Shown: in pieces, positions 12,140 through 64,000 of the stretch
Position numbering within the stretch: the first letter of the stretch is position 1
Layout of the letters: the number at the start of each line of letters is the position of its first letter
Source: Ginglymostoma cirratum
Taxonomy: Eukaryota
Assembly: GCA_024137785.1 (NCBI GenBank)
Contig: JAHRHZ010000028.1
Location: 27,569,847 to 27,633,846, forward strand
Direction of reading: 5' to 3'
Length of the DNA: 64,000 nucleotides
Notes under the pieces: generated by a model
What the model was told of the DNA's origin: nothing
Database searches by the model: none
What the model saw: only the letters and a program-made list of their open reading frames with translations
Made by a program: the position numbers and the translations under genes

Positions 12140-12740
12140 ATTGAAGGAATGGGCAGATGCATTAGACCGTCATCAAGGCATAGAATACCAGAGCAGGGAT
12201 GTTATTTTGGAACTGTGTACAATGTTGATAAGGCCATAACTGGAGTAGTATGTGCAGTTTTGGGTCACCACTGTATTGGAAGGATGTGATGATGCTCGAC
12301 AAGGTGTAGGTGGGTGGAGTGGGGGGGTGCGCATGGAGGAGCGGGGGGATCACTACAATATCACCTGGGCTGGAGCTATGGAGAAAGACTAAATAGGCTG
12401 GGGTTGTTTTCCTTTGAGCAGAAATGGCTGATTGTAGAAAATTGAGGAGCATAGATAAAAAGAAGAGGGGTCAATAACCAGGGGGCATAGGTCTGTGATA
12501 AGGAGCAGGAGATTTAAATGGGTCTAAAAGAAAACAGTTTTTACTCGGTGGTGGGTATCTGGAAATTCACAGCCTGAAAGGATGATAGAGGTGAGAGCTG
12601 TCGCACAATTTCAAATATATTTAAATGATCATTTTACACCACTGCATATAAGGCCATGAGTCAAGTACTCAATTTTTGGGCTAGATACATGTTTGAATGA
12701 TGTGGATGCAATGCAGAGTTTCCGTGCTGCAAACTCTGAC
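12140..12740 (+). mobile_element. Degraded CR1 LINE 3' fragment
   Basis: CR1 RT C-terminal signature (L(E/Q)YC/VQFWSP-type: ctggagtagtatgtgcagttttgggtcacca; ggtgggtatctggaa). Confidence 0.7.
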
Positions 12741-12976
12741 TATTGGCCCTTATTTGGCTCAAGACTGATACCACCCATTGCTTGTAAAATACTAATGGTG
12801 ATCGGTTTGACCCCAGACTTTATAATAGTCCCCGCTGCTGATCTGCTCCCAGAGAATGTAAGGTTTCTCTTTGTGGTGCTGTCTAATTTGCTGACTATTC
12901 CTATTGCTGACTGCTTTTTAAATAAAGATTTTAAGGCATACATAGAGCATCATCTTTAATCCAGGAGGTAATTACT

Positions 12977-13156
12977 CTAGGATTTGAATTGCAGCGCTGC
13001 ATATTCCACTGATTCTGAAGAATTGATCTTGATGTTTTCTTTTTGCTGTTTCAAATCCTTTAAGTTAGCATAAGTTACAGAATCTTCCTTTGTTTGAGCA
13101 GATGGTTGAAGGGTCATAGTGGAATGAATGACAGTGTCTTCCCTTTCCCTGTCAGA
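12977..13156 (-). CDS. Gene B (CD300/pIgR-like, 2 IgV) exon 7: terminal cytoplasmic exon with ITIMs
   Basis: Acceptor tctttattttag, phase 0. SDREREDTVIHSTMTLQPSAQTKEDSVTYANLKDLKQQKENIKINSSESVEYAALQFKS*. ITIM-type VTYANL (13061-13078) and VEYAAL (12992-13009). Aligns to the gene A last exon. Confidence 0.9.
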   Translation of the reverse strand, partial: SDREREDTVIHSTMTLQPSAQTKEDSVTYANLKDLKQQKENIKINSSESVEYAALQFKS

Positions 13157-14812
13157 CTAAAATAAAGACCTCATTCACACTTGGACCAGTAACAAAGACG
13201 TGGTGATAAAGTATGAAAATTGACATTGAATGACATTACCATCACTGAAACTCCCACCATCAATATTTGGGAGTTACTATTGTCAAGGAACTGAACTGAA
13301 TCAACCCTAGATCTATTGCAGCTATAAGTAAAAGCAAATCACCGTAGTTGCAGAGGACCAGACTGCTGCTTGTTTATTAGAAAGTTTTAACCTGAGGCTC
13401 ACGATGACTTGGGAGGGGGAGGGGGGGTGGGGGGAGGAGGTTGAAGTTGGTGACCTCATCCGGTATGAAAATTAAACCGACACTAGCTGTTGCTTTGCAG
13501 CTAGCTGGTCCAGCCACCTGAACTAACTGACCTCGATGATGGAGTTTGGGGATGCAAAAATGCACTTACTCAAAACAGAGTTGTCAAACTCTGGCTGATT
13601 GCCTGTCAGCCTACAAGGCATAAGTTAGGAGTGTGATCACATCAGAATACTACTCCACTCCCGCCCCCCCTACCTCCAGTCCCTAGTTTGTTGATTGCAG
13701 CTTCAACAGTATTTAAGAAATGTGGTACTGTCCAGGACAAAACACCCACATGTTTGGCACTCTATCAAACACCCTCAATATTCAAATACGGGGGAATACT
13801 GCGGTGCTGGAGATCTGAAATAAAAACACAATGCTGGAGAAGCTCAGTAGATCAATTTTTGCTATCTCTATCGCTGGTGCTATCCTGCTGACCTTCTCCA
13901 GCATTTTCTGTTTTTGTTACCTTCAGCATATATTTGCTGCATCACTGATGCGCAGAGCCATTAATGTGTACCATCTATAAAATTCACTGCAGCAACTCGC
14001 TAAGAAACATTTCTTCTCATTTTTCTTGCCATTGCTCTTCAGTACGTTGAACAGTATGCACAAAATGCCCCAGTGACTGTGTCTACGCAACTTGGAGAGA
14101 GCATTGTCAGTAAAGCTCCTTCAATGGCTGCTTCCAAATCAGCAGCCTACCACCTAGAAATTAAACGGCATCAGATACATGGATTCAGTGCACTGTGCAG
14201 GTTCCCCTCCAAGGTTCACACCATCCTGTTTTGGAACATATCCCTTCACTGGCACTGGGTCAAATACTGGAATTCCTTCCCTAACAGAATTAAGGGTGAA
14301 CCAATGCCAGACAGACTGTAGAGATTCAAGTCAGAGGCCGATCAGCTTCTCTGAGCAGAACCTCTTGCAGCAACGCTTGCCTTTATGTCTGTGAGGATGA
14401 GTAATTCCACATTTACCTCAATTTTTCCACTAATCCCATGACGTTGAACTTAATAAAAGTCTATCATTGGAGTATCTTGTCAAAATTCAATTTGTATTCC
14501 TTCACCGGATGCTTAGACCAGCATTTATTGCCTGTCTTTTATTGCTCTTGAGAATATAATGGTGAGTGAATTGATTTGAATCTCTGCAGTCTTTCAGATG
14601 TGGGTACGTCCACAGTGCAGTCGGGAAGTGAGTTTCTATGTTTAATCCAGTAACAGTGAATAAGCAGCAATATAGTTCCACATCAGGATGGTGTATGGTT
14701 TGGAGGGGAATTGGAGATGGTGGTTTTCAACGCCAATAAATATAATGCTTCACAGAGTAATTGCAAGATAAGTGGAACAATAGCCATAGTCTTAGATGCC
14801 TTCTCTTCTTAC

Positions 14813-14853
14813 CTTTCTAGTCATGTCTGGGATTTCTGGATTTTCATTTTTAG
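14813..14853 (-). CDS. Gene B exon 6: short cytoplasmic exon
   Basis: attttgcag| AKNENPEIPDMTRK |gtaagaag. 41 nt, phase 1->0, exactly bridging the TM exon to the ITIM exon. Confidence 0.8.
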
Positions 14854-16450
14854 CTGCAAAATAAAATACAAACGATTCACTTCCAACAGGGTTACTTTCA
14901 TTCGTTCTCACCACAGTAGTTTTGTTCTATTCTAGTTTGAAATATAAACCACTGCAAAAACCTCAATCTCTCACTCTGTTTCACACTTACACTCAGCCAC
15001 CCACATCAAGCCAACCACGTCTTCTAACCTACTCTAGGAAGCTCCAATTACTTGCTATTTCCGAGCTGTATGATGGTAAACCACTTCCTTCAAGATGTTA
15101 AGGAAAATTTTTGGTTTGCGGTGTCTTTCAACTTGATAATTTGAACTCCGATAATTTCATCTGCTAATGGTGGTAACCTGTTTCTGAAAACATTGTGTGA
15201 CAACTCTGAGGCATGCAAGCTCTTCACTGCTTCCAATGCAATGCATATCTTACAAGATAGAAATTTAAATTATATTGTAAATTATGGAGGTATGCTAGAG
15301 TTTAATCTGAATCAGCAAGACCAAATCACGGCCTTCAATCAATTGAATAACTTCAGATGTTCTTCTAAAGTGTGTGTATGATCATCAGTTTACTCTAGAT
15401 GTTTTGATTTTACTCATTTCATTCTTTATAAAATATTTAATAAAGAATAGTGGAAGATGGATTTTGAAATAATTTTCAGATAATATATTGTAAAAACATT
15501 TGAAGCTTTAAATGTTCACTCCCATCTTTTCCAGCAAACTGTGTATCAGCTATAAGTTGCACTGATAAACTTTGCCACAGCACCTTCCAAATCCACAACC
15601 GCTACCATTCAGAAGGACAAAGGTGGCCTTGCACCAGAATAGTACCACCTTCAAGTTACCCTCCAACCTACACAGCATCCTGATTTGGCACCACCTCACT
15701 GTTGTCTGAAAATATTTGTTCATGGGATGTGAGGCCAACATTCCATGAACATCCCTGTGTGCCTGGAGGAAGTGTCTTCTTGAATTACTGCAACTCATTT
15801 AGAGTATGTACACCACAGAGCTGAAAGGAAGGGAGTTCCAGAATTTTGATCCACTGACGATGAAAGATGTTAGTATGCATCTTTGAACCCAAGCCTCCTG
15901 GCCATGAATTTGGACACATTATGCACAAGAAGCCTAATAAATGATCGCAGTAGGTCAGACTTTGGAGAAGTAATTTCCCCATTTAATTGTCGTTGTAAGT
16001 GAATAGCACAAACTGAGTTCAAACATCCCAATGGCTTAAATGACTGTAGGTATCGATTGCCCTCAGCATTAGCTCCAGGAGGTGTTCTTCAGTTACCTGT
16101 TGGTCTTGGACCTAAGTGGGGCTCACCAGATTGTCACCTTGATAGACCTAATTGAGTATAAGTCACCTATGTGATGATAGCCTCTGTCACATTAACCCCA
16201 CTTTGAACAAGAGTACTCTGAGGCAGGTAGGATTCTGGTAGCCAAACCTACACACTACTTTGTACCTTTGCTCCTGGTCCTATTTCCCAAATCACTTGTG
16301 TAGAACAGTGAAAATTTTGCCCTATTTGTTTATGATTGGGTGGTAATTATTTTCAATATTATATCAACATTTTACTATTGTCTGTTCAGGAATCAGTTTC
16401 TGATTTTCCATGCTGATTTATTGCAGAAAAATATTTCCTTGGCTACATAC

Positions 16451-16569
16451 CCTCATTTCCTGCTCTTTTTGTCACTTTTCTTTTCCACATAAACAGAATC
16501 AGCAGCGATAAGATTAACAGTCCCAACAAAACAGCGAGGATGATGTACCATATTTGCGGGGTGATATTG
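16451..16569 (-). CDS. Gene B exon 5: transmembrane exon
   Basis: ttttcttttag| (S)NITPQIWYIILAVLLGLLILSLLILFMWKRKVTKRAGNE |gtatgt. 119 nt, phase 2->1. Uncharged TM with basic stop-transfer. Confidence 0.9.
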
Positions 16570-16719
16570 CTAAAAGAAAATGAAGCAGAGCTGATTAAAT
16601 TGAAGCTTTGTGGACTCAATAGAACAATGCAAAAATATATAAACACTTATTGGATGTAAACTAGATAGAGGAATTGGTTTTAAACCCAATTATCTCTGAA
16701 TTGGAAGATGTGTTATGTT

Positions 16720-17055
16720 CCTGTGCCTCTACGCCTACCTTGAAGATGCATTGCAGCAACCTGTTAAAGCTTCTTCAGTAGTACCTTCCAAACGCATAAT
16801 GTCTACCCCTTTAAAAGGTAAAGGCAGCACCACCATCTGCGTGTTCCCTTCCAGGACACGCACCATCTTGACTTTGAACTATATTCCTTCAAAATCCTGG
16901 AGCTCCCTTCCATAATAAAATTGTGGGAAGTACTGACATCATGTGGGCTGCAACAGCTCAAGAGGGTAGCTCACTGCTACCTTCTCAAGGTCAGTGAAGG
17001 CTGGGAAATGAATGCTGGCCTTGTCCATGATGCCCACAGCTTGTGAATGAATAAC
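16720..17055 (+). mobile_element. L2-type LINE 3' fragment
   Basis: caccaccatctgcgtgttcccttcc...aaaatcctggagctcccttcc...gctggccttgtccatgatgcccacagcttgtgaatgaat. Related fragments at about 14130-14350, 15530-15670 and 18830-19000. Confidence 0.55.
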
Positions 17056-17378
17056 GCACTGGGTTGAAGTGCAGCTTTCTCACGGTGAACAGAAATGAGA
17101 AACAAGTAGGAACGCAGAGCTTATTGTCAATTGAATGATTGCTGTCAGGACCTATATACATTTTGCTACCTGCCTTTGACAGTGGTATTAATTGAGGAAA
17201 AACAGTTAGGAGCAGAATTATGAGGAAAGCTATGGCACCAAAAAGGGTATGAGCCCTCTGCTAGTTTTTTTTTTATCACCTAACGTTGCTGTGTATGGTG
17301 AAGAGACCAGAACTATCCATCAACTTCAATCAGAATGACCCAAAAATGATTATTCTAAGAAAACTATTAAAATGTTAC

Positions 17379-17412
17379 CTTGGGGTGTCGATGGAAACTG
17401 CTGGAATCCCCA
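17379..17412 (-). CDS. Gene B exon 4: short stalk
   Basis: tttctttgcaacag| VGIPAVSIDTP(S) |gtaaca. 34 nt, phase 1->2, as required to join IgV2 (phase 1) to the TM exon (phase 2). Confidence 0.75.
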
Positions 17413-19365
17413 CTGTTGCAAAGAAACATGAATAAATAACTGAATGAATAACAGAAAACCATCAACAATACAAGCATAACTTTGCTCCTTAGCACACCAC
17501 AAAAGAAGTACGATAGCAGTTGATTGGGTGGGGGTGAATGGGAGGGGGATGTTCAGCGGTTGTGTGGCAAGGGGGAGGGGTATATTTGGTTTTGGGGGCG
17601 AAGCAGAGGAGGGTAGTGACTGGTGGAGGTGAATGGAAAGGTTCTGTTTTGGAGGGATACAGGAGGAGAGGAAGGGGAATGATGACTGGTGAGGGTGGAG
17701 AGAGGTGGGTATGTTGAGTGGTGTGAGTGGTTAACTGGTGGAGGGGGAATACGTTCAGTAATTCTGAACATTAGCAGTTTAAGATTCCTTAAGGCAATTG
17801 CTCAAATCAGGATGGTAAAGAAAAATTGGTTGAATGAATGTCTTTGCCTTTATAGGGTCATGAAATCTTGTGAAAGGGAAATGATGGAGAGTTAGATTCA
17901 AGGGAGACCCAGTGGGAGGAAAGGCAGGGGGTAATGTCAGGGCATCGTGAAATGGAGGGGTTCCTAGCAGCCCTTGGGGGGATTTAAAAATAATAGAAGT
18001 CTACATTTGTCAGGGCCCTCAGTGTGGAGGGGAATTAGTGCTGCAAATGCGGCTCTTATCTCCATTTGTTTCCATGAATTAGGGATTGGGTAGAGACCGT
18101 CATAGCCTCAAGGCCTGTCATTTGGAGATGCACATAGTTGCTGGACCTGTACCTCACTGGTGCATGGAGAATGGAATGGTCCAGCACCAAGAAAAATGCC
18201 ACTGGCTTTTGAAAATATCTGCTCTGTCAACTCCTAGTTGGCTTCATTATTATTCCATCTCCACGGAGTAGGTAGATGATTCCTATGGGGTCCTGCCCAG
18301 GGAAATTCACCCAGAGGGTGGGACAGCAGTCAGAGGTGACTTGAACCAAAGCTGTCTGCATGCCCCTCCCCTACCACCACAATCACCACCACTGCAGAGC
18401 AGAGAAGATCCTGCCCAGAGTGATGAAACCACCTGGCCATGACCACATTCTCTGCAAACTTAGCCTCTTGCGCACAGAAATGCTACAGTATACCTCACTG
18501 TCCATGTGGCACTTGAGGATCCATTCAAAAATGTGGGTGAATTTACCACAAAGCTGCCTCAATATCTTTTTCCTCCTTCTTCCATGACTGGACTGAGATA
18601 CAGCACTGGGCCAGTAACTGGAAGAAAGAGTAATTATCCAGGGACATAGATTGCTCATCCTGAACTGGTATTATTTGAAAGTAATTACAATGTCTGTTTT
18701 ATATCTAATTTCAGATACTGATTCATTTGCTGTGTGTTATATATTACAGCAAATAATAATTTAACTGAAGTCTAAGGTATGTGAATGTTTAGCATCCTAT
18801 CAAGGTTTAGGATTACATCCTTTACTGTCGCTGATTAAGATCCAAGAACTCTGTCCCTAACAACTCCACCCTTTGAGGAGGTGTTCCTACATCATGTGAC
18901 ACGTCATGTGACAGCAGTGGTCAAGAAGGCAGCAACATCACCTTCTCAAAAGTAATTTGGGATGGACAATAAAACCTGGCCTTGCCCATGTCCCTATGAA
19001 TGAGAAAAGCAGGGATGTCCGCATTTACAGTGGAGGCAAAATCTAAATGTCTTTAATCTAAAATAGTTACTAAATATTCAATAAGAATTTCAGGCAGAAT
19101 ATTCTTTACCTGGAGAATTGTCAGAATGTGGAAGTTGCTTAATACTGAACTTATTCACACAGGAAGTCCTTGAGGCAAGAACGGGCAGTGAAGGAAACAC
19201 ATTGAGATGTCGTGGAGTAAGAGAAGGATGTGTTGTAAGGGTGAAATGACATAGGGCTGGAGAAGGTGCTTGTGAAGCATGAACACTGGCATTGACCAAT
19301 TGTGTCTATTCTGCTAAGTGCTATGGATAACCAACTGAATTATATAATTTCAAGTTGATTCTTAC

Positions 19366-19695
19366 CACCAACAATTGTCAGGTTTTTAACCTGTGTGATC
19401 TTTACGTCATTTATTTTTACTGATGCACACCAATACAGTCCTTCATCTGCTTTACTGGTATTACTCATAATAATTGTAAAATTTTGAGACTTGTTTGTCA
19501 TGATTGAAACTCTCCCTTTATACTTATTTCCTATATTTTTGTTCGAATCGGCGATAACAGTGCACTTATTTACAGAGGTTACTTTACAAAATAATTTCTT
19601 ATAGTCTATCTCCTCCTGTTGTGTGTACAGACATGATACAGTCGTGGTATTTTCCATTACATTATTGATCTCTGTTGGGATGGATTCCTCTGAAT
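19366..19695 (-). CDS. Gene B exon 3: IgV domain 2 (CD300/pIgR type)
   Basis: ccaacag|...|gtaag, 330 nt, phase 1->1. DSEESIPTEINNVMENTTTVSCLYTQQEEIDYKKLFCKVTSVNKCTVIADSNKNIGNKYKGRVSIMTNKSQNFTIIMSNTSKADEGLYWCASVKINDVKITQVKNLTIVG. Contains CxY, FCx7C, GRVS and DxGxYWC. Confidence 0.92.
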
Positions 19696-20397
19696 CTGTT
19701 GGTAAATGTGAAAAAGAAAGTCATTAAAACTAAAGAATGAAGAAAAGCTGAATAATCTTAATTACAAAAAAATCTAAAATAAATGAGGTAAATGTTGAGA
19801 ATGTTAAAAATGTTTTCTGTTTTTAAATACAAACAGAATTTTAGAGTCTTAGAGCCCACTGTGAGCATTGAAAGCTCTTGTGTTCATTGTTCATGTTACA
19901 TTTTAAATTGTGTATATTTTCCACTATACGTGGGAGATATGTTTGTCCAAGTTTGGTAATTCCTTCTTGTTCTCCATAACTCCAATAAAAATGCTTAAAG
20001 GACTGTTTCTGGGAGGAGCAGACCAGTTTTTGTTTTAAGTTACTACACCAGATATAGAGTTGATCATTTATTTTAAATTGTGTTTCAGTAGCAGTAAAGA
20101 GTGCTTACTCTCAAGTTGAGGCTAATTTCTCACAGGAGACCATCGTGTATCATAGATGCAATGTAACTAGCTATTAAGCAATATGTAGTAAACCTATTTA
20201 TTGTTCATCAAAATTGAACATATCTTTGACCAAAACCTTTCTTGTGGGGATCCTATGGTGGCAGTATCTTATGCCAGTATCAGTGAGATGTTCACCTACT
20301 CAAAGCTGCTTAGTCACACAATTTTACAGAAGCATTTGGATACAGGGACCTGTGTTGATCTTTTCATAAACTGGACTCATATTCTGTAGCACACCAG

Positions 20398-21370
20398 TGT
20401 TGTGAAGTTGGGTAAAGTACTTGTGGATTGGGAGGCAGGTAGTTAGAATTTGGTGTTTGTAAAATGCTAGGTGGGGTGTGGGGGTTGGAAGCATTGCATG
20501 GTCTCTTTACAAGATCTTGTGTTTTTTCTGTACTTAGAAGTTTAAATAGATGTCTGTGTGCAGCAGCTTGAAAGTTTGCAAGTATACAGAGAACATCTGA
20601 ATTGAAACATTTATATTAATAGACCATACAGTTAGCAGGCCAAGTAGCAGTTTTTGCCAAGACAACAAGCTTTTGAATTTAGCCAATCAATTTGAACCAT
20701 GTACTTAGATACCAAAGTCCAATCAAATTTAAATCTGATGGTTTTGACAACATAGGACCAACCTTATTGTAAGAAATATTGATATGTCATCAAGGGTATA
20801 AAAAGAAGGGGACAGTGGACCAAGACAGCTGAGCTAGCTGCCATCTGCCAGAGCTAACAGCCCTCAACTCCGAAGAAAGAATTGCTGGCCCTCACAGCCT
20901 CTTCTATGTCTTGGAGAAAGCACCATCTAAATAACAATGGTACCAATGGCACAACTAGTTAATATTCCTGACAGAAGAATCGATGGAGAAGACACAGAAC
21001 ATTCCGGAAGACCCGTAACCTGGCTGCAATTTTGAGAGACTAAATTCTTTTTTTTTCATATAAGTAGGAATTGGATTTATTGGAACAGCATACCATTAGA
21101 ATCCCATTTTATTCAGGAATAGTTAGTAGTTAGAAGGGATTTATTCAATTTGTTAATAGTTTAGTTAATTTGTTTGCTGTTAGAGTTGGTAAATAAATTG
21201 CTACTTGTTGATTTTAAAGTGAGTGTCTGGGATTTATTTTGTTTAACCACTGGAAGTTGCTAAAAGGCGGTTACACCTCACACTCCCTTGTACAGATTAT
21301 AGGGCAAGGTGCTCTTCTTTGGGTCTTTTGGTTTTAGTTCTCAGAGGGGATCAACCTTCACTTTATAGCA
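20398..21370 (+). mobile_element. Probable solo LTR in gene B intron 2, antisense to the gene
   Basis: Begins TGTTGTG and ends ...TAGCA. CCAAT boxes near 20684 and 20719, TATAAAA near 20796, AATAAA near 21192. Flanks ccag/ccac form an imperfect 4-bp TSD. Confidence 0.5.
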
Positions 21371-21450
21371 CCACCCTGAAGATTGGTAGGCCTGGTGTTA
21401 CTGCACCCAGATGACATTATCAGCCTTATTATCTTCTGAAATACTCTTAC

Positions 21451-21774
21451 CTGTAAAAACCTTCAATAATGTAACATCTGAAACAATGATGGAACCTTGA
21501 TCTTCTGCTCCCCACCAGTACGTTCCTGTATCTTTCTTCTGAAGAGATTGCATGGTAACAGAAATTGACCCATGTGCTTCAGAGATGGATGTTGTACTTT
21601 GAACATTTTTGTTCATACCTTTTTTAAGGTGTACTATAACATGGCATTCAGCTTCCGAATATGTTTTACACCAGATTGCAACGTGTCTTCCATTCCATTT
21701 CCATGGAAATTTGACAGTGATATTTTTCCTTGCTGCAGCTTTCAACACTGTCCATGTATTTTCTGTCCATGAAG
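21451..21774 (-). CDS. Gene B exon 2: atypical IgV domain 1 lacking the canonical B-F disulfide
   Basis: cacaatag|...|gtaag, 324 nt, phase 1->1, open. TSWTENTWTVLKAAARKNITVKFPWKWNGRHVAIWCKTYSEAECHVIVHLKKGMNKNVQSTTSISEAHGSISVTMQSLQKKDTGTYWWGAEDQGSIIVSDVTLLKVFT. Retains WCx7C and L-x3-D-T-G-x-Y-W. Confidence 0.88.
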
Positions 21775-21899
21775 CTATTGTGTGAAATGTTACAAATAAC
21801 CGGGAATTAAATTACAATAATCAATTTTAGACAATTGTTTTGAAACGTCACAAACAACAATAGCAAATGTTTCACCAAGGGGAAGAAGAAAAGGTGCTG

Positions 21900-23120
21900 G
21901 AAGAGAATGGAATCTTCAAATCTTAGAGCAAAGCAGGAGTCATTTGGCCTTTTGTGTGTGTGCCAACTCTTTAAAGAGCTGGTCAAATTAATCCCACACC
22001 TAGATTCCTCCATAACCCTCATCTTCAAATAGGTATCCAAATGCCTTTTGAAAATTTCTGTGGAATCTGACTTCCTTACTTCTTCAGGAAATGCAATCCA
22101 GATCCTAACAATCTTCTCTATGAAATAATTTCTCTTTATTTCTCCACTAATGTTTATACTGATAATTTTAAATCACTGGTTACAAATCTACTTGCCAAAT
22201 GACATTTTTCCCTACTTGCTGCATCAAAATCCTTTCTAGTTTTCACTACCTGGATTAGTTTCCCCCTACCTGCACTAAAGAACAACAATCTTGAGTTTAA
22301 GAACGTAAGAACTTGGAGCAGGAATAGACTATTCTATTGAGCCTGAAACGCCATTGAATATGATCATGGCTGATCTCATCTTGGCCTCAGATCCACTTTC
22401 TGGCTTGCTGTCCATGATGCTTCAACTCATTACTAATTAAAACTCTGTCATTCTCCTCCTTAAATTTATTCAATGTTCGGGGATCCACTTGCTTTGGCCA
22501 CAGATTCACAACCATTTGAGAGGAGTAATTTTTCCTCACTTCTGTTTTAAATTTGCTACTCTCTATCTCAAACCAATGACCTCTCATTCTAGATTGCCCA
22601 AATGAAAAATCCTTTCTCTGTCTACTTTTGTAACTAGATCTCCTCTCATTCTTCTAAACTCCAGACAGGACAAATTGCTCCTAAATTGCTCAATCTCTCT
22701 ACAGAAGACAATCTTCTCTAATCTCTTCACATAAACAACCACCATCATCCCTGATATCAACCTGGTGAATGTCTGTGCCTTGGTCTGCTCCTCGACGTTC
22801 CTAAAGTGTGGTCCCATAATTTAACACAGTTCTTCAGCTGAAGCATATCATCTGCTTAGTAAAAGTTTAGCATGATTTTGTCTTTTTCTATTCAGTGTGA
22901 CTATTTACACATCCAAGAATCCCATAACTGCCTTGTCAACTTGCTCTGCTACCTGAATGAATGGGCACCCCCCCAGGACCCTCAGGTCGTGCACACCCCC
23001 ATCCCCCTCAGTCGTTCCATTTAGGCTATTGTGTTCCTCCACATTGTTCTTCTCTCGAAGTGCATTAATTCGCACTTACCTACAGTATATTGCATCTGCC
23101 GTGTGTCTATCCCTTTCACC
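21900..23120 (-). mobile_element. Degraded CR1 LINE 3' fragments
   Basis: Minus-strand ORF remnants LEFRRMRGDL and RGHWFEI...FKTEVRKNYSSQMVVNLW; CR1 3' tail near 22300-22390. Confidence 0.7.
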
Positions 23121-24104
23121 TAATAACAAAGAAATGTCCATTTGTCCTCTGTTTTTGTTCTTTGGACATTGGGAACCCAAAAGTCAGCTCTACTGAGCAA
23201 CGTCACTAATGTGGCTTGAGGAATGAGACATGGAACCCATCTGAGATGGATCTAGCAAGGATCAGAAGCCAGTCAATAAGAGCTTTGTGGAATTTAGTGC
23301 ATCATTCCAAATCCATAGAAGTACTGCCTATAAATATTTATGAGATTGATCTATAGAGCTATGATGATGACTTTAAGTGATGAAGGAAGCTACTGCTTGG
23401 TTTTAACATTGACTGTTCTGGTTACTACAATTATTCAAATGGTTCTTCCTCTGGGAGGCAGGAGAGGGTACGTGTTTTGTTTGGTGGTCCTTTTGATTAT
23501 ACAGCAGAATAACAGAATTATTCAGCTCACTGTACTTGAACTAACTCTTCAAATAAGAATCACTACCTCGTGCCAAATCTCCTGTTTTTCTCCATATTTT
23601 TGCGCACAACTTTTATCCAAATAATCATCCAGTGCCTTCTTCAATGCCTCAATTGTACTTCCCTCTGTTACAGTTCTGGGTAGTACATTCCTTTATAGCT
23701 TGTACCGATCTCCTTAAATTCCTGTAATGTCCTATAATACAACACCATTCCCTTCCCTGAGGGAATTCTACTTCTCCGAATCTAGCTTCATCCGCTCCCA
23801 CTGCGCCACTAATAGTAGGTCTGTTTTCAATGAGGTCCAACTTTCTGGAACTCCACAGTTAAAACCCTTGCCCTCACCAACTCCTTCTCTGATTCGCAAC
23901 CTATTTCCACACTGCAGGGAGGGATTCTATTTAAAGCCGTCTCTTCAACAAAGCTAGTAATCCGAACACCCAATTTCCCCTTCTCTCGCGCAGAAAAAAA
24001 TGTTTCTCTTCCTTCTCTGTTAAGAAGTTTGAGCCAGTTTTCTAAGATGAAGACACTACATAAGTGCGAGCAGTGATTCCAAATATAGAAGAAAAAAATC
24101 TTAC

Positions 24105-24144
24105 TTGATATCAGACTGAGGACCAGCAGTGCAGTGAACTTCAT
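24105..24144 (-). CDS. Gene B exon 1: signal peptide
   Basis: ggaaccATG MKFTALLVLSLIS+A |gtaaga. 40-nt phase-1 leader with good Kozak context. Confidence 0.88.
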
Positions 24145-24197
24145 GGTTCCAGTGAAGTTATCCACAGTTTTCAGTGCAATACATGTATCTCTGTGTC

Positions 24198-24246
24198 TAT
24201 TTAAGGATCTATGCTGAATCATTTACTTCCTTATAGAATTGCAAAT
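24198..24246 (-). promoter_or_regulatory. Putative gene B core promoter: Ets site, AP-1-like site, TATA-like box
   Basis: Minus strand: AGGAAGT (24225-24231), TGATTCA (24215-24221), TTAAATA (24198-24204), 54-87 nt upstream of the ATG. Further GAGGAAGT at 24322-24329. Confidence 0.45.
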
Positions 24247-24574
24247 ATCTTCCTTGTATGCGCAGGCTAAGAGTTGATAAAACAGACTGTTTCCCAATTT
24301 TGATGTAAACAGTTCCAGTTTGAGGAAGTTGTTTTTTAAATTCCAACCTCTGGTAGCTTCTTTCCTCTGTCATGTGCAAAAAATAAATAAATGTAGGAAA
24401 GCAATTCAGATGGAATTTTTTTTATCATGAACACTAATTCAATTTGAGGGATGGGATCAGTGGCAGTTGCTTTTGAGAGAGTGTTGGAGGGGCACTCTCA
24501 CTTAGCTGTTTGCATAGCATTTCAAACTGAGGTGTTTTAGGTTTGTTGGATCCAGTGTCTTAAGTTGATCAGAT

Positions 24575-49933: not shown

Positions 49934-50993
49934 AAAAGCTTGCAGTGTGTTTTACTGTGTTTTCACTGACAAGGAACTCTCCTTTCAGACAGGACAAAAA
50001 CATGCGGGTGCAATGGAGTCCCACAGAAAGAAGCAAACCAGGCAAAACCAGGCTGGCGATGCTGGAGAAGCAGACTGATGTCAACCACAGTAACAGCTTT
50101 CTAAAGAAAGTGTCAGTGACTTTGCATGAACTCATCTCAACAATCCTCCCCGACACCTCATTTTTACTCCAGAAGTCCAGTCCCTGTACACCTGTATTCC
50201 CCATGCAGATGGACCAAAGGCCCTCCGCATCTTCCTGTCCTGCAGAACTGACCAATCCCCCTCCACTGACACCCTCATCCGCTTAGCCGAACTCGTCCTC
50301 ACCCTCTGCAACTTCTCTTTCAATTCCTCCCACTTCCTACAGACAAAGGGAATGGCCATGGGTACCCGCATGGGCCCAAGCTATGCCTGCCTCTTTGTAG
50401 GTTACGTGGAACAATCCCTCTTCCGTACCTACACTGCCCCTAAACCCCACCTCTTCCTCCGTTACATTGATGACTGTATCGGCGCCGCCTCGTGCTCCCA
50501 CGAGGAGCTCGAACAGTTGATCCACTTCACCAACAGCTTCCACCCCAACCTGAAGTTCAGCTGGACCTTCTCCAACACTTCTCTCTCCTTCCTGGACCTC
50601 TCTGTCTCCATCTCGGGTAACCACCTAGAAACCGATGTCCATTTCAAGCCCACTGACTCCCACAGCTACCTGGAATACACCTCCTCCCACCCACCTTCCT
50701 GCAAAAATGCCATCCCCTATTCCCAATTCCTTTGCCTCCGCCGCATCTGCTCCCAGGATGAGGCATTCCACTCCCGCACATCTCAGATGTCCTCATTCTT
50801 CAAGGACCGCAACTTCCCCCCTGCAGTGGTCGAGAACGCCCTTGACCGTGTCTCCCGCACTTCCCCGCAACTCATCCCTCACACCCCGTCCCCGGAATAA
50901 TAACCAAAAAAGAATCCCCCTCGTCCTCACGTTCCACCCCACCAACCTCCGGATCCAACGCATCATCCTCCGACACTTCCGCCATCTGCAATC

Positions 50994-51393
50994 NNNNNNN
51001 NNNNNNNNNNNNNNNNNNNNNNNNNNNNNNNNNNNNNNNNNNNNNNNNNNNNNNNNNNNNNNNNNNNNNNNNNNNNNNNNNNNNNNNNNNNNNNNNNNNN
51101 NNNNNNNNNNNNNNNNNNNNNNNNNNNNNNNNNNNNNNNNNNNNNNNNNNNNNNNNNNNNNNNNNNNNNNNNNNNNNNNNNNNNNNNNNNNNNNNNNNNN
51201 NNNNNNNNNNNNNNNNNNNNNNNNNNNNNNNNNNNNNNNNNNNNNNNNNNNNNNNNNNNNNNNNNNNNNNNNNNNNNNNNNNNNNNNNNNNNNNNNNNNN
51301 NNNNNNNNNNNNNNNNNNNNNNNNNNNNNNNNNNNNNNNNNNNNNNNNNNNNNNNNNNNNNNNNNNNNNNNNNNNNNNNNNNNNNNNNNNNNN
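50994..51393. other. Assembly gap (400 N)
   Basis: Run of N. Confidence 1.
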
Positions 51394-51719
51394 ACATCTC
51401 AAATGTCCTCATTCTTCAAGGACCGCAACTTCCCCCCAACAGTGGTCGAGAACGCCCTCGACCGTGTCTCCCGCATTTCCCGGAACACATCCCTCACGCC
51501 CCGTCCCCGCAACAATAACCAAAAAAGAATCCCCCTCGTCCTCACATACCACCCCACCAACCTCCGGATCCAACGCATCATCCTCCGACACTTCCGCCAT
51601 CTGCAATCAGACCCCACCACCAAAGACATTTTTCCCTCCCCACCCTTGTCTGCCTTCCGGAGGGACCACTCCCTCCGCGACTCCCTTGTCCGCTCCACAC
51701 TCCCCTCCAGCCCCACCAC

Positions 51720-51819
51720 NNNNNNNNNNNNNNNNNNNNNNNNNNNNNNNNNNNNNNNNNNNNNNNNNNNNNNNNNNNNNNNNNNNNNNNNNNNNNNNNN
51801 NNNNNNNNNNNNNNNNNNN
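51720..51819. other. Assembly gap (100 N)
   Basis: Run of N. Confidence 1.
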
Positions 51820-52774
51820 ACAATAATAACCAAAAAAGAATCCCCCTCGTCCTCACGTACCACCCCACCAACCTCCGGATCCAACGCATCATCCTCCGAC
51901 ACTTCCGCCATCTGCAATCTGACCCCACCACCAAAGACATTTTTCCCTCCCCACCCTTATCTGCTTTCCGGAGGGACCACTCTCTCCGTGACTCCCTTGT
52001 CCGCTCCACACTCCCCTCCAGCCCCACCACACCCGGCACTTTTCCCTGCAACCGCAGGAAGTGCTACACCTGCCCCCACACCTCCTCCCTCACCCCAATC
52101 CCAGGCCCCAAGAAGACTTTCCACATCAGGCAGATGTTCACCTGCACATCTGCCAATGTGGTATACTGCATCCGCTGTACCCGTTGTGGCTTCCTCTACA
52201 TCGGGGAAACCAAGCGGAGGCTTGGGGACCGCTTTGCAGAACACCTGCGCTCAGTTCGCAACAAACAACTACACCTCCCAGTCGCGAACCATTTCAACTC
52301 CCCCTCCCATTCCTCAGATGACATGTCCATCCTGGGCCTCCTGCAATGCCACAGTGATGCCACCCGAAGGCTGCAGGAACAGCAAATCATATTCAGCCTG
52401 GGAACCCTGCAGCCCAATGATATCAATGTGGATTTCACAAGCTTCAAAATCTCCCCTCCCCCAACCGCATCCCAAAACCAGCCCAGCTCGTCTCCGCCTC
52501 CCTAACCTGTTCTTCCTCTCACCTATCCCCTCCTCCCACCTCAAGCCCCACCCCCATCTCCTATCTACTAACCTCATCCCGCCCCCTTGACCTGTCCGTC
52601 CTCCCTGGACTGACCTATCTCCTCCCTACCCGCCCACCTACACTCACCTTTACTGGCTCCATCCCCGCCTCTTTGACTTGTCTGCCTCCTCTCCACCTAT
52701 CCTCTCCTCTATCCATCCTCTATCTGTCTCCCCCTCTCTCCCTATTTATTTCAGAACCCTCTTCCACTCCCCCA

Positions 52775-61990: not shown

Positions 61991-64000
61991 ATAAGGTTAT
62001 AAAATAACTATTAAATGAAAATAAATATTTTGTATCAACTGTGTGTTTGATTCATCCAATCGTAGATTTCCAATTTAAACCAAATATCTTCATACCAACC
62101 AACCATTCTGTTGACAAGTATAAAGTGAAACCCAAAAGCCAATGTTCTCACACTGGAATGGTGCCAGTAACAGTTTATGCGTAAATCATTTCATTTTGGG
62201 GTGGGTTAGTTGCTGCTTTTCTGGGCAACTTGCAAAGTCCTTGAGCTTTTGGACTGAAGTGAAATATTTGTAAGCATATGAAAGAAAGGTTTAAATGATT
62301 GGACCTAAAACTGAGTGTAGCACGTGATTGATACAGAGCCAGCCAGAGCAGCAAAGGGCAGCCAACTGATTATAGCCCATTCCCTCGTTAGAACATCTCT
62401 GATTAAACAAGGAACTATAATTAATACAGTACCAAATTATTTATACTTGAAGCTAATAAATAAATTTAAATTATAGTCATACTTGACTTAATGAACTCTA
62501 CTCCTCTCCAAAAAAATCATCCAACAAAGTATTGAATTCATGTGAGTTGTATGAGCATAGTGTGATTGTTTACTGTGTGGTCACATCGAGAGTTATTGAG
62601 CTTTGAATACACAATAGAACATGGGATAACCACACTTCCCCATGTCAGGTATCAGTCGAGTGAGATTTCTCTGAACTGCTTGTCGCACATTTGTATCCTT
62701 TACTAAATAAAGAGACAAAAACCGAACAAAATAATGCAGATGTGGTCTCAGCAATACCCTTTACAACTAAGGCAAACCAAACCTGCCTTGATATTCCACT
62801 TCCCTTTGAAAAAGTCAAAACGTTCAATTCATAATCACTTGCTGGATCCATATTCCAACCTTTTCTCATTCATATTCCAGGACATCCCCAATCCCTCTGT
62901 ACCTTAGAGTCTTGTGAGCTCTCTCCATTGGAATATGATGCTGCTTTTCTATTGTTCCTTGCAAAGTGAATATGTACGCATTATTCCACATGATAGTCCA
63001 CTTGTCAAACATTTTCCCGCTCACTGAACTGATCCCTGTCTCTCTCTCCATACTCCTTATGTCCTCTTAGCAATTACCTTCCTACAAATCTTTATGTCAT
63101 TAGTAAATTTAGCAAGCATACAGTCAGTCCCTTCAGACAAGTCATTTATATCAATGGTAAGTGATCATCACAGTTATTGTTGTATCTTCTTCACCGGAAC
63201 CTATTATGTTTATCCTGTATACTCCATCCTGGAGCATGGTTACAGTTAGGGGCCTATAAACTATTGTCCAAAAGTAACATCTTATCTTTATTCAGAAATC
63301 ACATAACAGCAGGTTTTAGTCCAATAGGTTTATTGAAAATCACAATCAGTTGGAGCGCTACTCCTTTATCATGTGAAATTCCTTATATTTACTATTTCTC
63401 ATCTCTGTCAAAACTGATTCTACATCCTGATCTCCAGACCTTAAGGCCATGTACTTATTCCACAAAAATCACCCTTAATTAACTGATCTACTCCTCCACT
63501 ATTCCTAGCTTTCTGTCCTTCCTGAGTGTCATTTGCTTTGACTAACACTTTCAATCATCAAGTCCCACATTCTGATATTCTCAGGGCTCCCTGTGCAGTC
63601 ATCCTCAGGAGAGTACAGTTTACTGCTTCATACATTTCTCTCTGTGTGGATATCTCATCTCCATACCTGAACACCTCAAATATCCTACAAACTTATGCAC
63701 TCATGCTTCACTGTGATTCTCTGCCAGTTTCTCTCCTATTCACACACAGTATTCCTAGCCCTCATTTATCTCTAATTTTGCAGGAGAAGGGAAGTCACAA
63801 GATCAGGGACAGTTAGAGAACTGAGTGAGGCGGTGGCTGGGGAGTGCTTTTCCTTCAGTGAGATCCATTTTAACAGCCCATCTGGCCCACTGTGAAGAAG
63901 GGATTGTTGCAGACGGCTGCGAATGACAGCAATGACATGCTGAGATAAGCTGAACTTCCTGAGGCATTAGTGCTAGACACATTGAGACAATGATCCTCTG

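Follow-up and report, generated by a model that had tools for sequence, protein, structure and literature searches.

The window, a stretch of 64,000 nucleotides from contig C28 (JAHRHZ010000028.1) of Ginglymostoma cirratum, carries a gene, here called gene B, that encodes a two-domain pIgR/CD300/TREM-like receptor with a signal peptide, two Ig domains (D1 and D2), a stalk, a transmembrane segment (TM) and two tail exons. Its exons, and the sites in D1 that matter for what follows, are these.

24105–24220, reverse strand: signal-peptide exon, start codon at 24144–24142 (MKFTALL...), located by tblastn with the zebra shark protein and by the joint to 21774
21451–21774, reverse strand: D1 exon, a membrane-distal V-set domain without the B–F cysteines (Pfam, PDB sequence matches, AlphaFold model, transcript contigs)
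21707–21709, reverse strand: Phe22 (TTT) at the B-strand Cys position (sequence, alignment, species states)
21695–21709, reverse strand: FPWKW, a Trp-rich stretch that closes strand B and opens the BC loop, common to five of five carpet-shark D1s
21644–21673, reverse strand: W34-C35-x7-C43, the C-strand Trp and the retained C–C′ cysteine pair (sequence, cross-species rows)
21512–21514, reverse strand: Trp87 (TGG) at the F-strand Cys position (sequence, alignment, species states)
19366–19695, reverse strand: D2 exon, encoding a V-set domain in which the four cysteines are all present; splicing from an internal donor at 19632 shortens the exon, in frame, to 63 nt
17379–17412, reverse strand: stalk exon, 34 nt (tblastn, transcript joints, frame check)
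16451–16569, reverse strand: transmembrane exon, a hydrophobic span without a charged residue (tblastn, transcript joints)
14813–14853, reverse strand: first cytoplasmic exon (tblastn, transcript joints, frame check)
12977–13156, reverse strand: last coding exon, with two ITIM-consensus motifs, VTYANL (Tyr 13072) and VEYAAL (Tyr 13003)

Four transcript runs (X1, X3, X22, and X23) were aligned to positions 12700–24500, and 15 of 56 joints were listed. X1 and X3 come from two studies, with the kind of run unrecorded, and are spliced at GT–AG; X22 consists of raw poly(A) reads, and X23 contributed one read only. Contigs from X1 and X3 span the entire D1 exon with no differing letter, and in both runs it is spliced to the signal exon on one side and to D2 on the other. 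The joint between the signal exon and 21774 is also carried by four poly(A) reads of X22 (depth about 1.5 over the D1 bin), and its frame was checked.

Two splice forms differ in D2. The joint from 19633 to 17412, which uses the internal donor and leads directly to the stalk, occurs in X1, in X3 and in a single read of X22, and thus in three of three runs covering gene B; the joint of full-length D2 (19366 to 17412) occurs in X1 only, among the joints listed. Contig depth does not rank the two isoforms. Their open frames encode 355 amino acids with six cysteines (full form) and 266 amino acids with two cysteines (short form), the latter dropping most of D2 in frame and leaving D1 as the sole Ig domain. 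The internal donor falls inside the codon of the D2 B-strand Cys (window 19633–19695 / 17412, reverse strand). An epaulette-shark database isoform (P0003) is also without most of D2, cut at the D2 C-strand Cys; a corresponding in-phase GT is present here at 19587, and its use was not seen in the listed joints. A bamboo-shark database isoform (P0160) skips D1, and some transcripts of gene B may do so too, as 15 of its 56 joints were listed.

In the tail, the first motif of gene B has His for Tyr (13126), as does that of zebra shark, and keeps Tyr in all eight other cartilaginous-fish tails examined. The second motif is now a consensus ITIM, reading VTYANL here and in zebra shark versus GTYANL in bamboo and epaulette sharks (hemiscylliids) (window 13126–13001, reverse strand). 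With His at the first motif and the second turned consensus, two consensus ITIMs are kept.

The zebra-shark database protein P0001 is 80% identical over D1 and corresponds to two tandem genes in the window, gene B and a second one, gene A (window 30530–53019, reverse strand), which has a single canonical V domain (47020–46706), a stalk, a TM and a tail with Tyr motifs. The merging of genes A and B in P0001 runs across the gene A stop codons and is likely an annotation error. No second genomic copy of the D1/D2 pair was found among at least 31 and at least 38 scored candidates. More related V exons lie upstream of gene B on the same contig, including four pIgR-like V exons with all four cysteines (L004, L005, L009, and L011; C28, 27.65–27.73 Mb). 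Contig C27 carries the pIgR-like V exons L007, L008, and L010, of which L008 and L010 keep the B–F pair and are without the C-strand Cys. An exon at window 62308–62400 (reverse strand) resembles the WxxxRW-type TM exon that is used by catshark, houndshark, chimaera, coelacanth and amphibian members of the gene B lineage, but the Arg is absent; it may be part of an upstream gene or a remnant of a paired partner. At window 50130–52500, there are tandem retroelement-like pieces with runs of N (500 N in the whole window), which we take, from translated motifs, to be of GIY-YIG/Penelope type.

In tetrapods, pIgR lies beside the IL10 cluster and C1orf116, CD300 is linked to NHERF1, and the TREM/NKp44 cluster adjoins NFYA. 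On C28, a SARG-family match lies at 21.40 Mb, an IL10-family match at 22.12 Mb, gene B at 27.59 Mb, and an NFYA-family match at 30.55 Mb, about 3 Mb from gene B. Matches to the NHERF family (EBP50_C) lie on contigs C78 and C23 and not on C28, although contigs may be less than whole chromosomes. Judged by these tetrapod gene orders, gene B occupies the position of neither pIgR nor CD300, being outside the IL10–C1orf116 interval and off the contigs with NHERF-family matches.

Cysteine sites and predicted fold of D1

The D1 exon is 324 nt long and open, codes for a domain of 107 residues and is flanked by AG at 21775–21776 and GT at 21449–21450, with both boundaries in phase 1. The domain matches Pfam V-set with E = 1e-5 (26.1 bits, against a cut-off of 26), and among PDB sequences it is most similar to pIgR, CD300a, CD300f and CD300c. 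The sequence-only reading had described this domain as one in which both canonical cysteines are replaced by aromatic residues whereas the C–C′ pair is kept, and this description stands in residues and register: Phe22 and Trp87 fall on the canonical B and F Cys columns, in predicted strands E18–25 and E83–91, and each codon is one transversion away from TGT or TGC. The WCx7C pair, the reading frame and the splice sites are likewise intact, as that reading had stated. Its account of a remodeled Trp-rich segment is correct in so far as FPWKW is present, but the proposed ancestry from a CxY...KYWC segment is wrong, as other elasmobranch D1s read C-P/S-Q/H and x-W/L-C at these places.

In an alignment of 492 family domains from homologues, Cys occupies the Phe22 column in 467 and the Trp87 column in 469, and both canonical cysteines are present in 453. 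The B or F cysteine is thus lost in 39 of 492 domains by alignment column, a count that includes some misaligned rows. An E-strand Phe at position 70 is found in 316 of the 492 domains and in no D1 row of the gene B lineage; its absence could free core space and so enable the loss, a correlation drawn from a single lineage.

The AlphaFold2 model of D1 (pLDDT 88.5, pTM 0.81) has nine strands, comprising all V-set strands including C′ and C″, with Phe22 in strand B, Trp34 and Cys35 in C, Cys43 in C′ and Trp87 in F. An intact V-set fold is therefore predicted. Since 12 of the 13 other rows in the 14-row input alignment carry both cysteines, the confidence of the model may be borrowed from them. 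The closest folds are NKp44, TREM2, FcmuR-D1 and CD300lf (Z 13.8–14.4, rmsd 2.1–2.4). We infer the packing of Phe22 and Trp87 from their register rather than from side-chain distances. D1 of the Xenopus laevis protein P0196 was also modeled as a V-set domain, its Phe48 lying in strand B and its Trp118 in strand F.

Gene B thus resembles the pIgR/FcmuR/CD300/TREM/NKp44 group in its best sequence and fold matches, its V-set fold, its Cx7C pair and its type I membrane topology with Tyr-based ITIM motifs; the canonical B–F pair of this group is absent in D1 and present in D2. It departs from true pIgR in position and in its D1 motifs, which read AIWC and DTGTYWW instead of KYWC and DxGxYxC, and from CD300 orthologues, in which one V domain carries two disulfides, in having two Ig exons, a single cysteine pair in D1 and EBP50_C matches located off C28.

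Stepwise cysteine loss in sharks and amphibians

Among 19 cartilaginous-fish D1 domains, 14 are Cys/Cys at the B and F sites, three are Phe/Cys and two are Phe/Trp. The Cys/Cys rows come from 12 species, all outside the carpet sharks; Phe/Cys is found in Hemiscyllium and two Chiloscyllium species, and Phe/Trp among sharks only in zebra shark and G. cirratum. The C–C′ pair is retained in 18 of the 19. The D1 of Scyliorhinus canicula (P0008) shows the reverse loss, keeping the B–F pair and having Phe at the C′ cysteine. No third shark protein with Phe/Trp, from whale shark or another species, appeared in homologue searches that were partly limited to proteins of at least 189 amino acids. Orthologues therefore bear out a conserved Phe/Trp pair for zebra shark, but not for the three hemiscylliids (Phe/Cys) or the rest (Cys/Cys). 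Because D2 and 14 of the 19 cartilaginous-fish D1 rows have the B–F pair, Phe/Trp is a derived loss within the lineage.

A tree was built from D1 and D2 together (35 rows including seven outgroup rows, 234 columns after removal of the two trait columns, LG+G4); it includes 10 of the 16 amphibian proteins and omits one catshark paralogue. The five carpet-shark rows group at 100/100, and the two Phe/Trp rows pair at 100/97. W7, F22, W24, and W26 appear jointly on the carpet-shark stem, which is the longest inner elasmobranch branch (0.41). The position of the three Phe/Cys carpet sharks beside the Phe/Trp pair means that the loss was stepwise; the paired loss of both cysteines suggested by the sequence-only reading is thus replaced by sequential changes, and a simultaneous event is ruled out by the hemiscylliids, whose living species tolerate a lone F-strand Cys. 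FPWKW also occurs in these bamboo and epaulette sharks that still bear the F-strand Cys, which indicates that the Trp-rich loop came with the first step of loss and not with the second.

An amphibian family was gathered after a frog match showed the same Phe/Trp pair. It comprises 16 proteins, of which 14 have a complete D1; Leptobrachium, in which only a D2-type domain was detected, and Xenopus tropicalis, whose model starts after strand C′, were left out of the count. Four of the 14 D1s are Cys/Trp (two caecilians, Ascaphus, Pelodytes), eight are Phe/Trp (Discoglossus, X. laevis, two Bufo, Engystomops, Dendropsophus, Hyla, Leptodactylus), and two are Leu/Trp (two dendrobatids), and all 14 keep the C–C′ pair. 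The F site is also Trp in the partial D1 of X. tropicalis, and so in 15 of 15 amphibian rows in which it is visible. The coelacanth D1 is Cys/Cys. In neobatrachians, D2 is the mirror of its own D1, with C–C′ lost and B–F kept in eight of eight proteins (P0197–P0201, P0203–P0205).

In the D1+D2 tree, the genes of cartilaginous fish, coelacanth and amphibians split from the seven outgroup rows at 100/99. The chimaera stands beside the elasmobranchs, the coelacanth beside the amphibians (91/84) and the caecilians beside the frogs, in agreement with the species tree. In this tree, with its small outgroup, the shark, coelacanth and amphibian genes appear to form a single gene lineage; a preliminary tree of 76 domains had left the deep grouping unresolved. 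A forced clade of the Phe/Trp sharks with the amphibians gives p-AU of 1e-6, and one of all five carpet sharks with the amphibians p-AU of 3e-4. With D1 alone, the values are 0.012 and 0.08, respectively, the latter not a rejection. Common ancestry of the shark and frog Phe/Trp pairs is thus rejected on D1+D2, whereas on D1 alone one of the two tests is not significant, and the frogs likely reached the pair independently of the sharks. The recurrence of the same pair in many frogs by a likely independent route suggests that it forms a workable core without a B–F bond. Losses of both cysteines with C–C′ kept are also found in unrelated bonytongue-fish domains (Ser/Ile and Asp/Ser), which indicates that such loss recurs in this family.

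Explanations of the Phe/Trp core

Gene B is real and transcribed, and it is most likely functional. The reading that we regard as probable is that its D1 is a normally folding outer domain of a likely ITIM-inhibitory receptor, in which a Phe/Trp core replaces the B–F disulfide. Phe22 and Trp87 likely pack on the C-strand Trp34 in place of that bond, and a C35–C43 bond, the formation of which is predicted, likely pins the C–C′ hairpin. From the species states and the tree, the ancestor of carpet sharks would have acquired Phe in place of the B-strand Cys, along with the FPWKW loop; the F-strand Cys, left without a partner, would have been kept in bamboo and epaulette sharks and changed to Trp in the branch of zebra shark and G. 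cirratum. In amphibians, the F strand would have gained Trp first, and the B strand would then have acquired Phe or Leu in most frogs. The likely driver is the second disulfide, which would make the B–F bond dispensable in this D1 lineage; hydrophobic filling and the loss of a free thiol may then have been favored among the available one-base changes. CD300 and TREM proteins bind lipids, and ITIMs recruit SHP. By analogy with CD300/TREM, D1 would be the part that senses ligand, a role in recognizing lipids or cell-surface molecules being likelier than one in transporting Ig, and SHP-1/2 would be recruited by the tail.

The genetic code itself partly accounts for aromatic replacement. Of the six amino acids that lie one base from Cys, three are aromatic, and two unfiltered single-base changes give two aromatics about 18–21% of the time. 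The exact combination of Phe at B and Trp at F has a chance of 0.6–2% without filtering, or 3–11% if only aromatics survive (the ranges reflect transition bias), so that the match between sharks and frogs is suggestive of a site preference and not extraordinary.

Divergence from zebra shark amounts to 21 of 107 residues in D1 and six of 107 in D2 (p = 0.003); the intact V domain of gene A differs at 17 of 103, a rate no different from that of D1 (p = 0.59). Hemiscylliids have no such gap between D1 and D2 (10–12 of 116 versus 10 of 110). Core positions of D1 differ at three of 26 and non-core positions at 18 of 81 (p = 0.27), with no significant protection of the core. The divergence of D1 is in keeping with an ordinary fast-evolving outer domain, and it agrees equally with relaxed constraint and with positive selection.

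Relaxed constraint would make D1 a folded but nearly dispensable spacer, from which the cysteines drifted away and in which hydrophobic neighbors were tolerated, with no new function. The faster change of D1 than D2 in the Phe/Trp branch, the lack of significant core protection, the bamboo-shark isoform that skips D1, the ease with which aromatics are reached from Cys codons and the B or F losses elsewhere in the family (some of them misalignments) are all in keeping with this. It nevertheless appears unlikely: the short form retains D1 as the only Ig domain in all three covering runs, as does the epaulette-shark isoform, Trp is fixed at every visible amphibian F site, and D1 evolves at the rate of the intact neighboring V domain.

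Still less probable is adaptive remodeling, in which positive selection acted jointly on the Phe/Trp core and the FPWKW loop to build a new binding surface for a lipid, an Ig or a pathogen, in line with the selected core and new binding surface suggested by the sequence-only reading. Such selection would account for the joint appearance of W7, F22, W24, and W26 on the long carpet-shark stem, for D1 outpacing D2 after the second loss, and for two transversions that are mutationally less likely than changes to Tyr or Arg; however, both cysteine positions belong to the core and not the surface, frogs arrive at the same core without FPWKW, and the loop is older than the second loss. An assembly error or a pseudogene exon, for which only the low read depth in X22 speaks, is highly improbable: the exact spliced contigs from two studies, the canonical joints, the open frames and the same Phe/Trp residues in zebra shark lead us to reject both.

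Between decay and a maintained, folded domain, the evidence sides with the latter, as had been proposed: D1 is transcribed and spliced in, its Phe/Trp pair is common to zebra shark, a V-set fold is predicted, and the pair is widespread in frog D1s.

Related systems and implications

Among the known systems closest to gene B are amphibian proteins named "pIgR-like" or "CMRF35-like molecule 5" (P0196 of X. laevis, P0197 of Bufo bufo, P0136 of Microcaecilia), which the tree places in the same gene lineage and of which eight of 14 combine Phe/Trp with C–C′ in D1. They differ from gene B in the opposite order of loss, the absence of FPWKW, a WDxLRW-type TM and a short tail instead of an ITIM tail.

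Functional Ig domains without a B–F disulfide are found in the N domains of CD2 and CEACAM, which have no compensating C–C′ pair and belong to families different from that of gene B. Nothing is therefore overturned by D1, as Ig domains without the B–F bond were already known. The available passages of a study on CD4/LAG-3 describe functional domains with species-specific, lineage-restricted losses of the B–F pair (PMC10768021), again in a different family.

In the passages available of earlier work, two cysteine pairs are typical of CD300 and pIgR V domains (PMC3031540, PMC9321927), whereas D1 of gene B has the inner pair only, and the motifs KYWC and DxGxYxC mark pIgR D1 (PMC9321927). Skate MDIRs, teleost NILT and PIGRL, as far as described in such passages, are likewise multigene families of activating and inhibitory V-domain receptors related to CD300/TREM/pIgR; NILT domains share the Cx7C pair but, according to the portion available, also have C23/C104 in addition to the inner pair (bioRxiv 2022.04.21.489081). 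A passage on shark data of 2014 reports no pIgR homologue (PMC4016189). Gene B is absent from the passages available of PMC3031540, PMC9321927, PMC10768021, PMC4016189, PMC13262535, PMC7916673 and bioRxiv 2022.04.21.489081, and a literature search over titles and abstract openings, with few subscription papers, returned none on gene B or on B–F loss in pIgR/CD300-like domains.

On balance, though with less assurance than for the probable reading given above, we favor the view that an undescribed receptor lineage of sharks, chimaeras, coelacanth and amphibians twice converted its D1 to Phe/Trp by opposite two-step paths, each with living intermediates, and that carpet sharks have a splice form with D1 as the sole Ig domain, held by the C–C′ bond only. 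The gene also points to a lineage of jawed-vertebrate receptors for which databases have no label but "pIgR-like".

No feature of Ig domains is more conserved than the B–F disulfide, and a set of four cysteines is taken to mark pIgR/CD300/TREM domains. Every state of loss (Cys/Cys, Phe/Cys, Cys/Trp, and Phe/Trp) is alive today, in two lineages of apparently one gene lineage, so that natural proteins make it possible to measure how much stability each step costs and how the C–C′ bond acts as a substitute. If the proposed history is true, it would constitute a natural, replicated experiment on how a V domain can lose the bond that is conserved above all others, and would provide a template for Ig scaffolds without a B–F disulfide.
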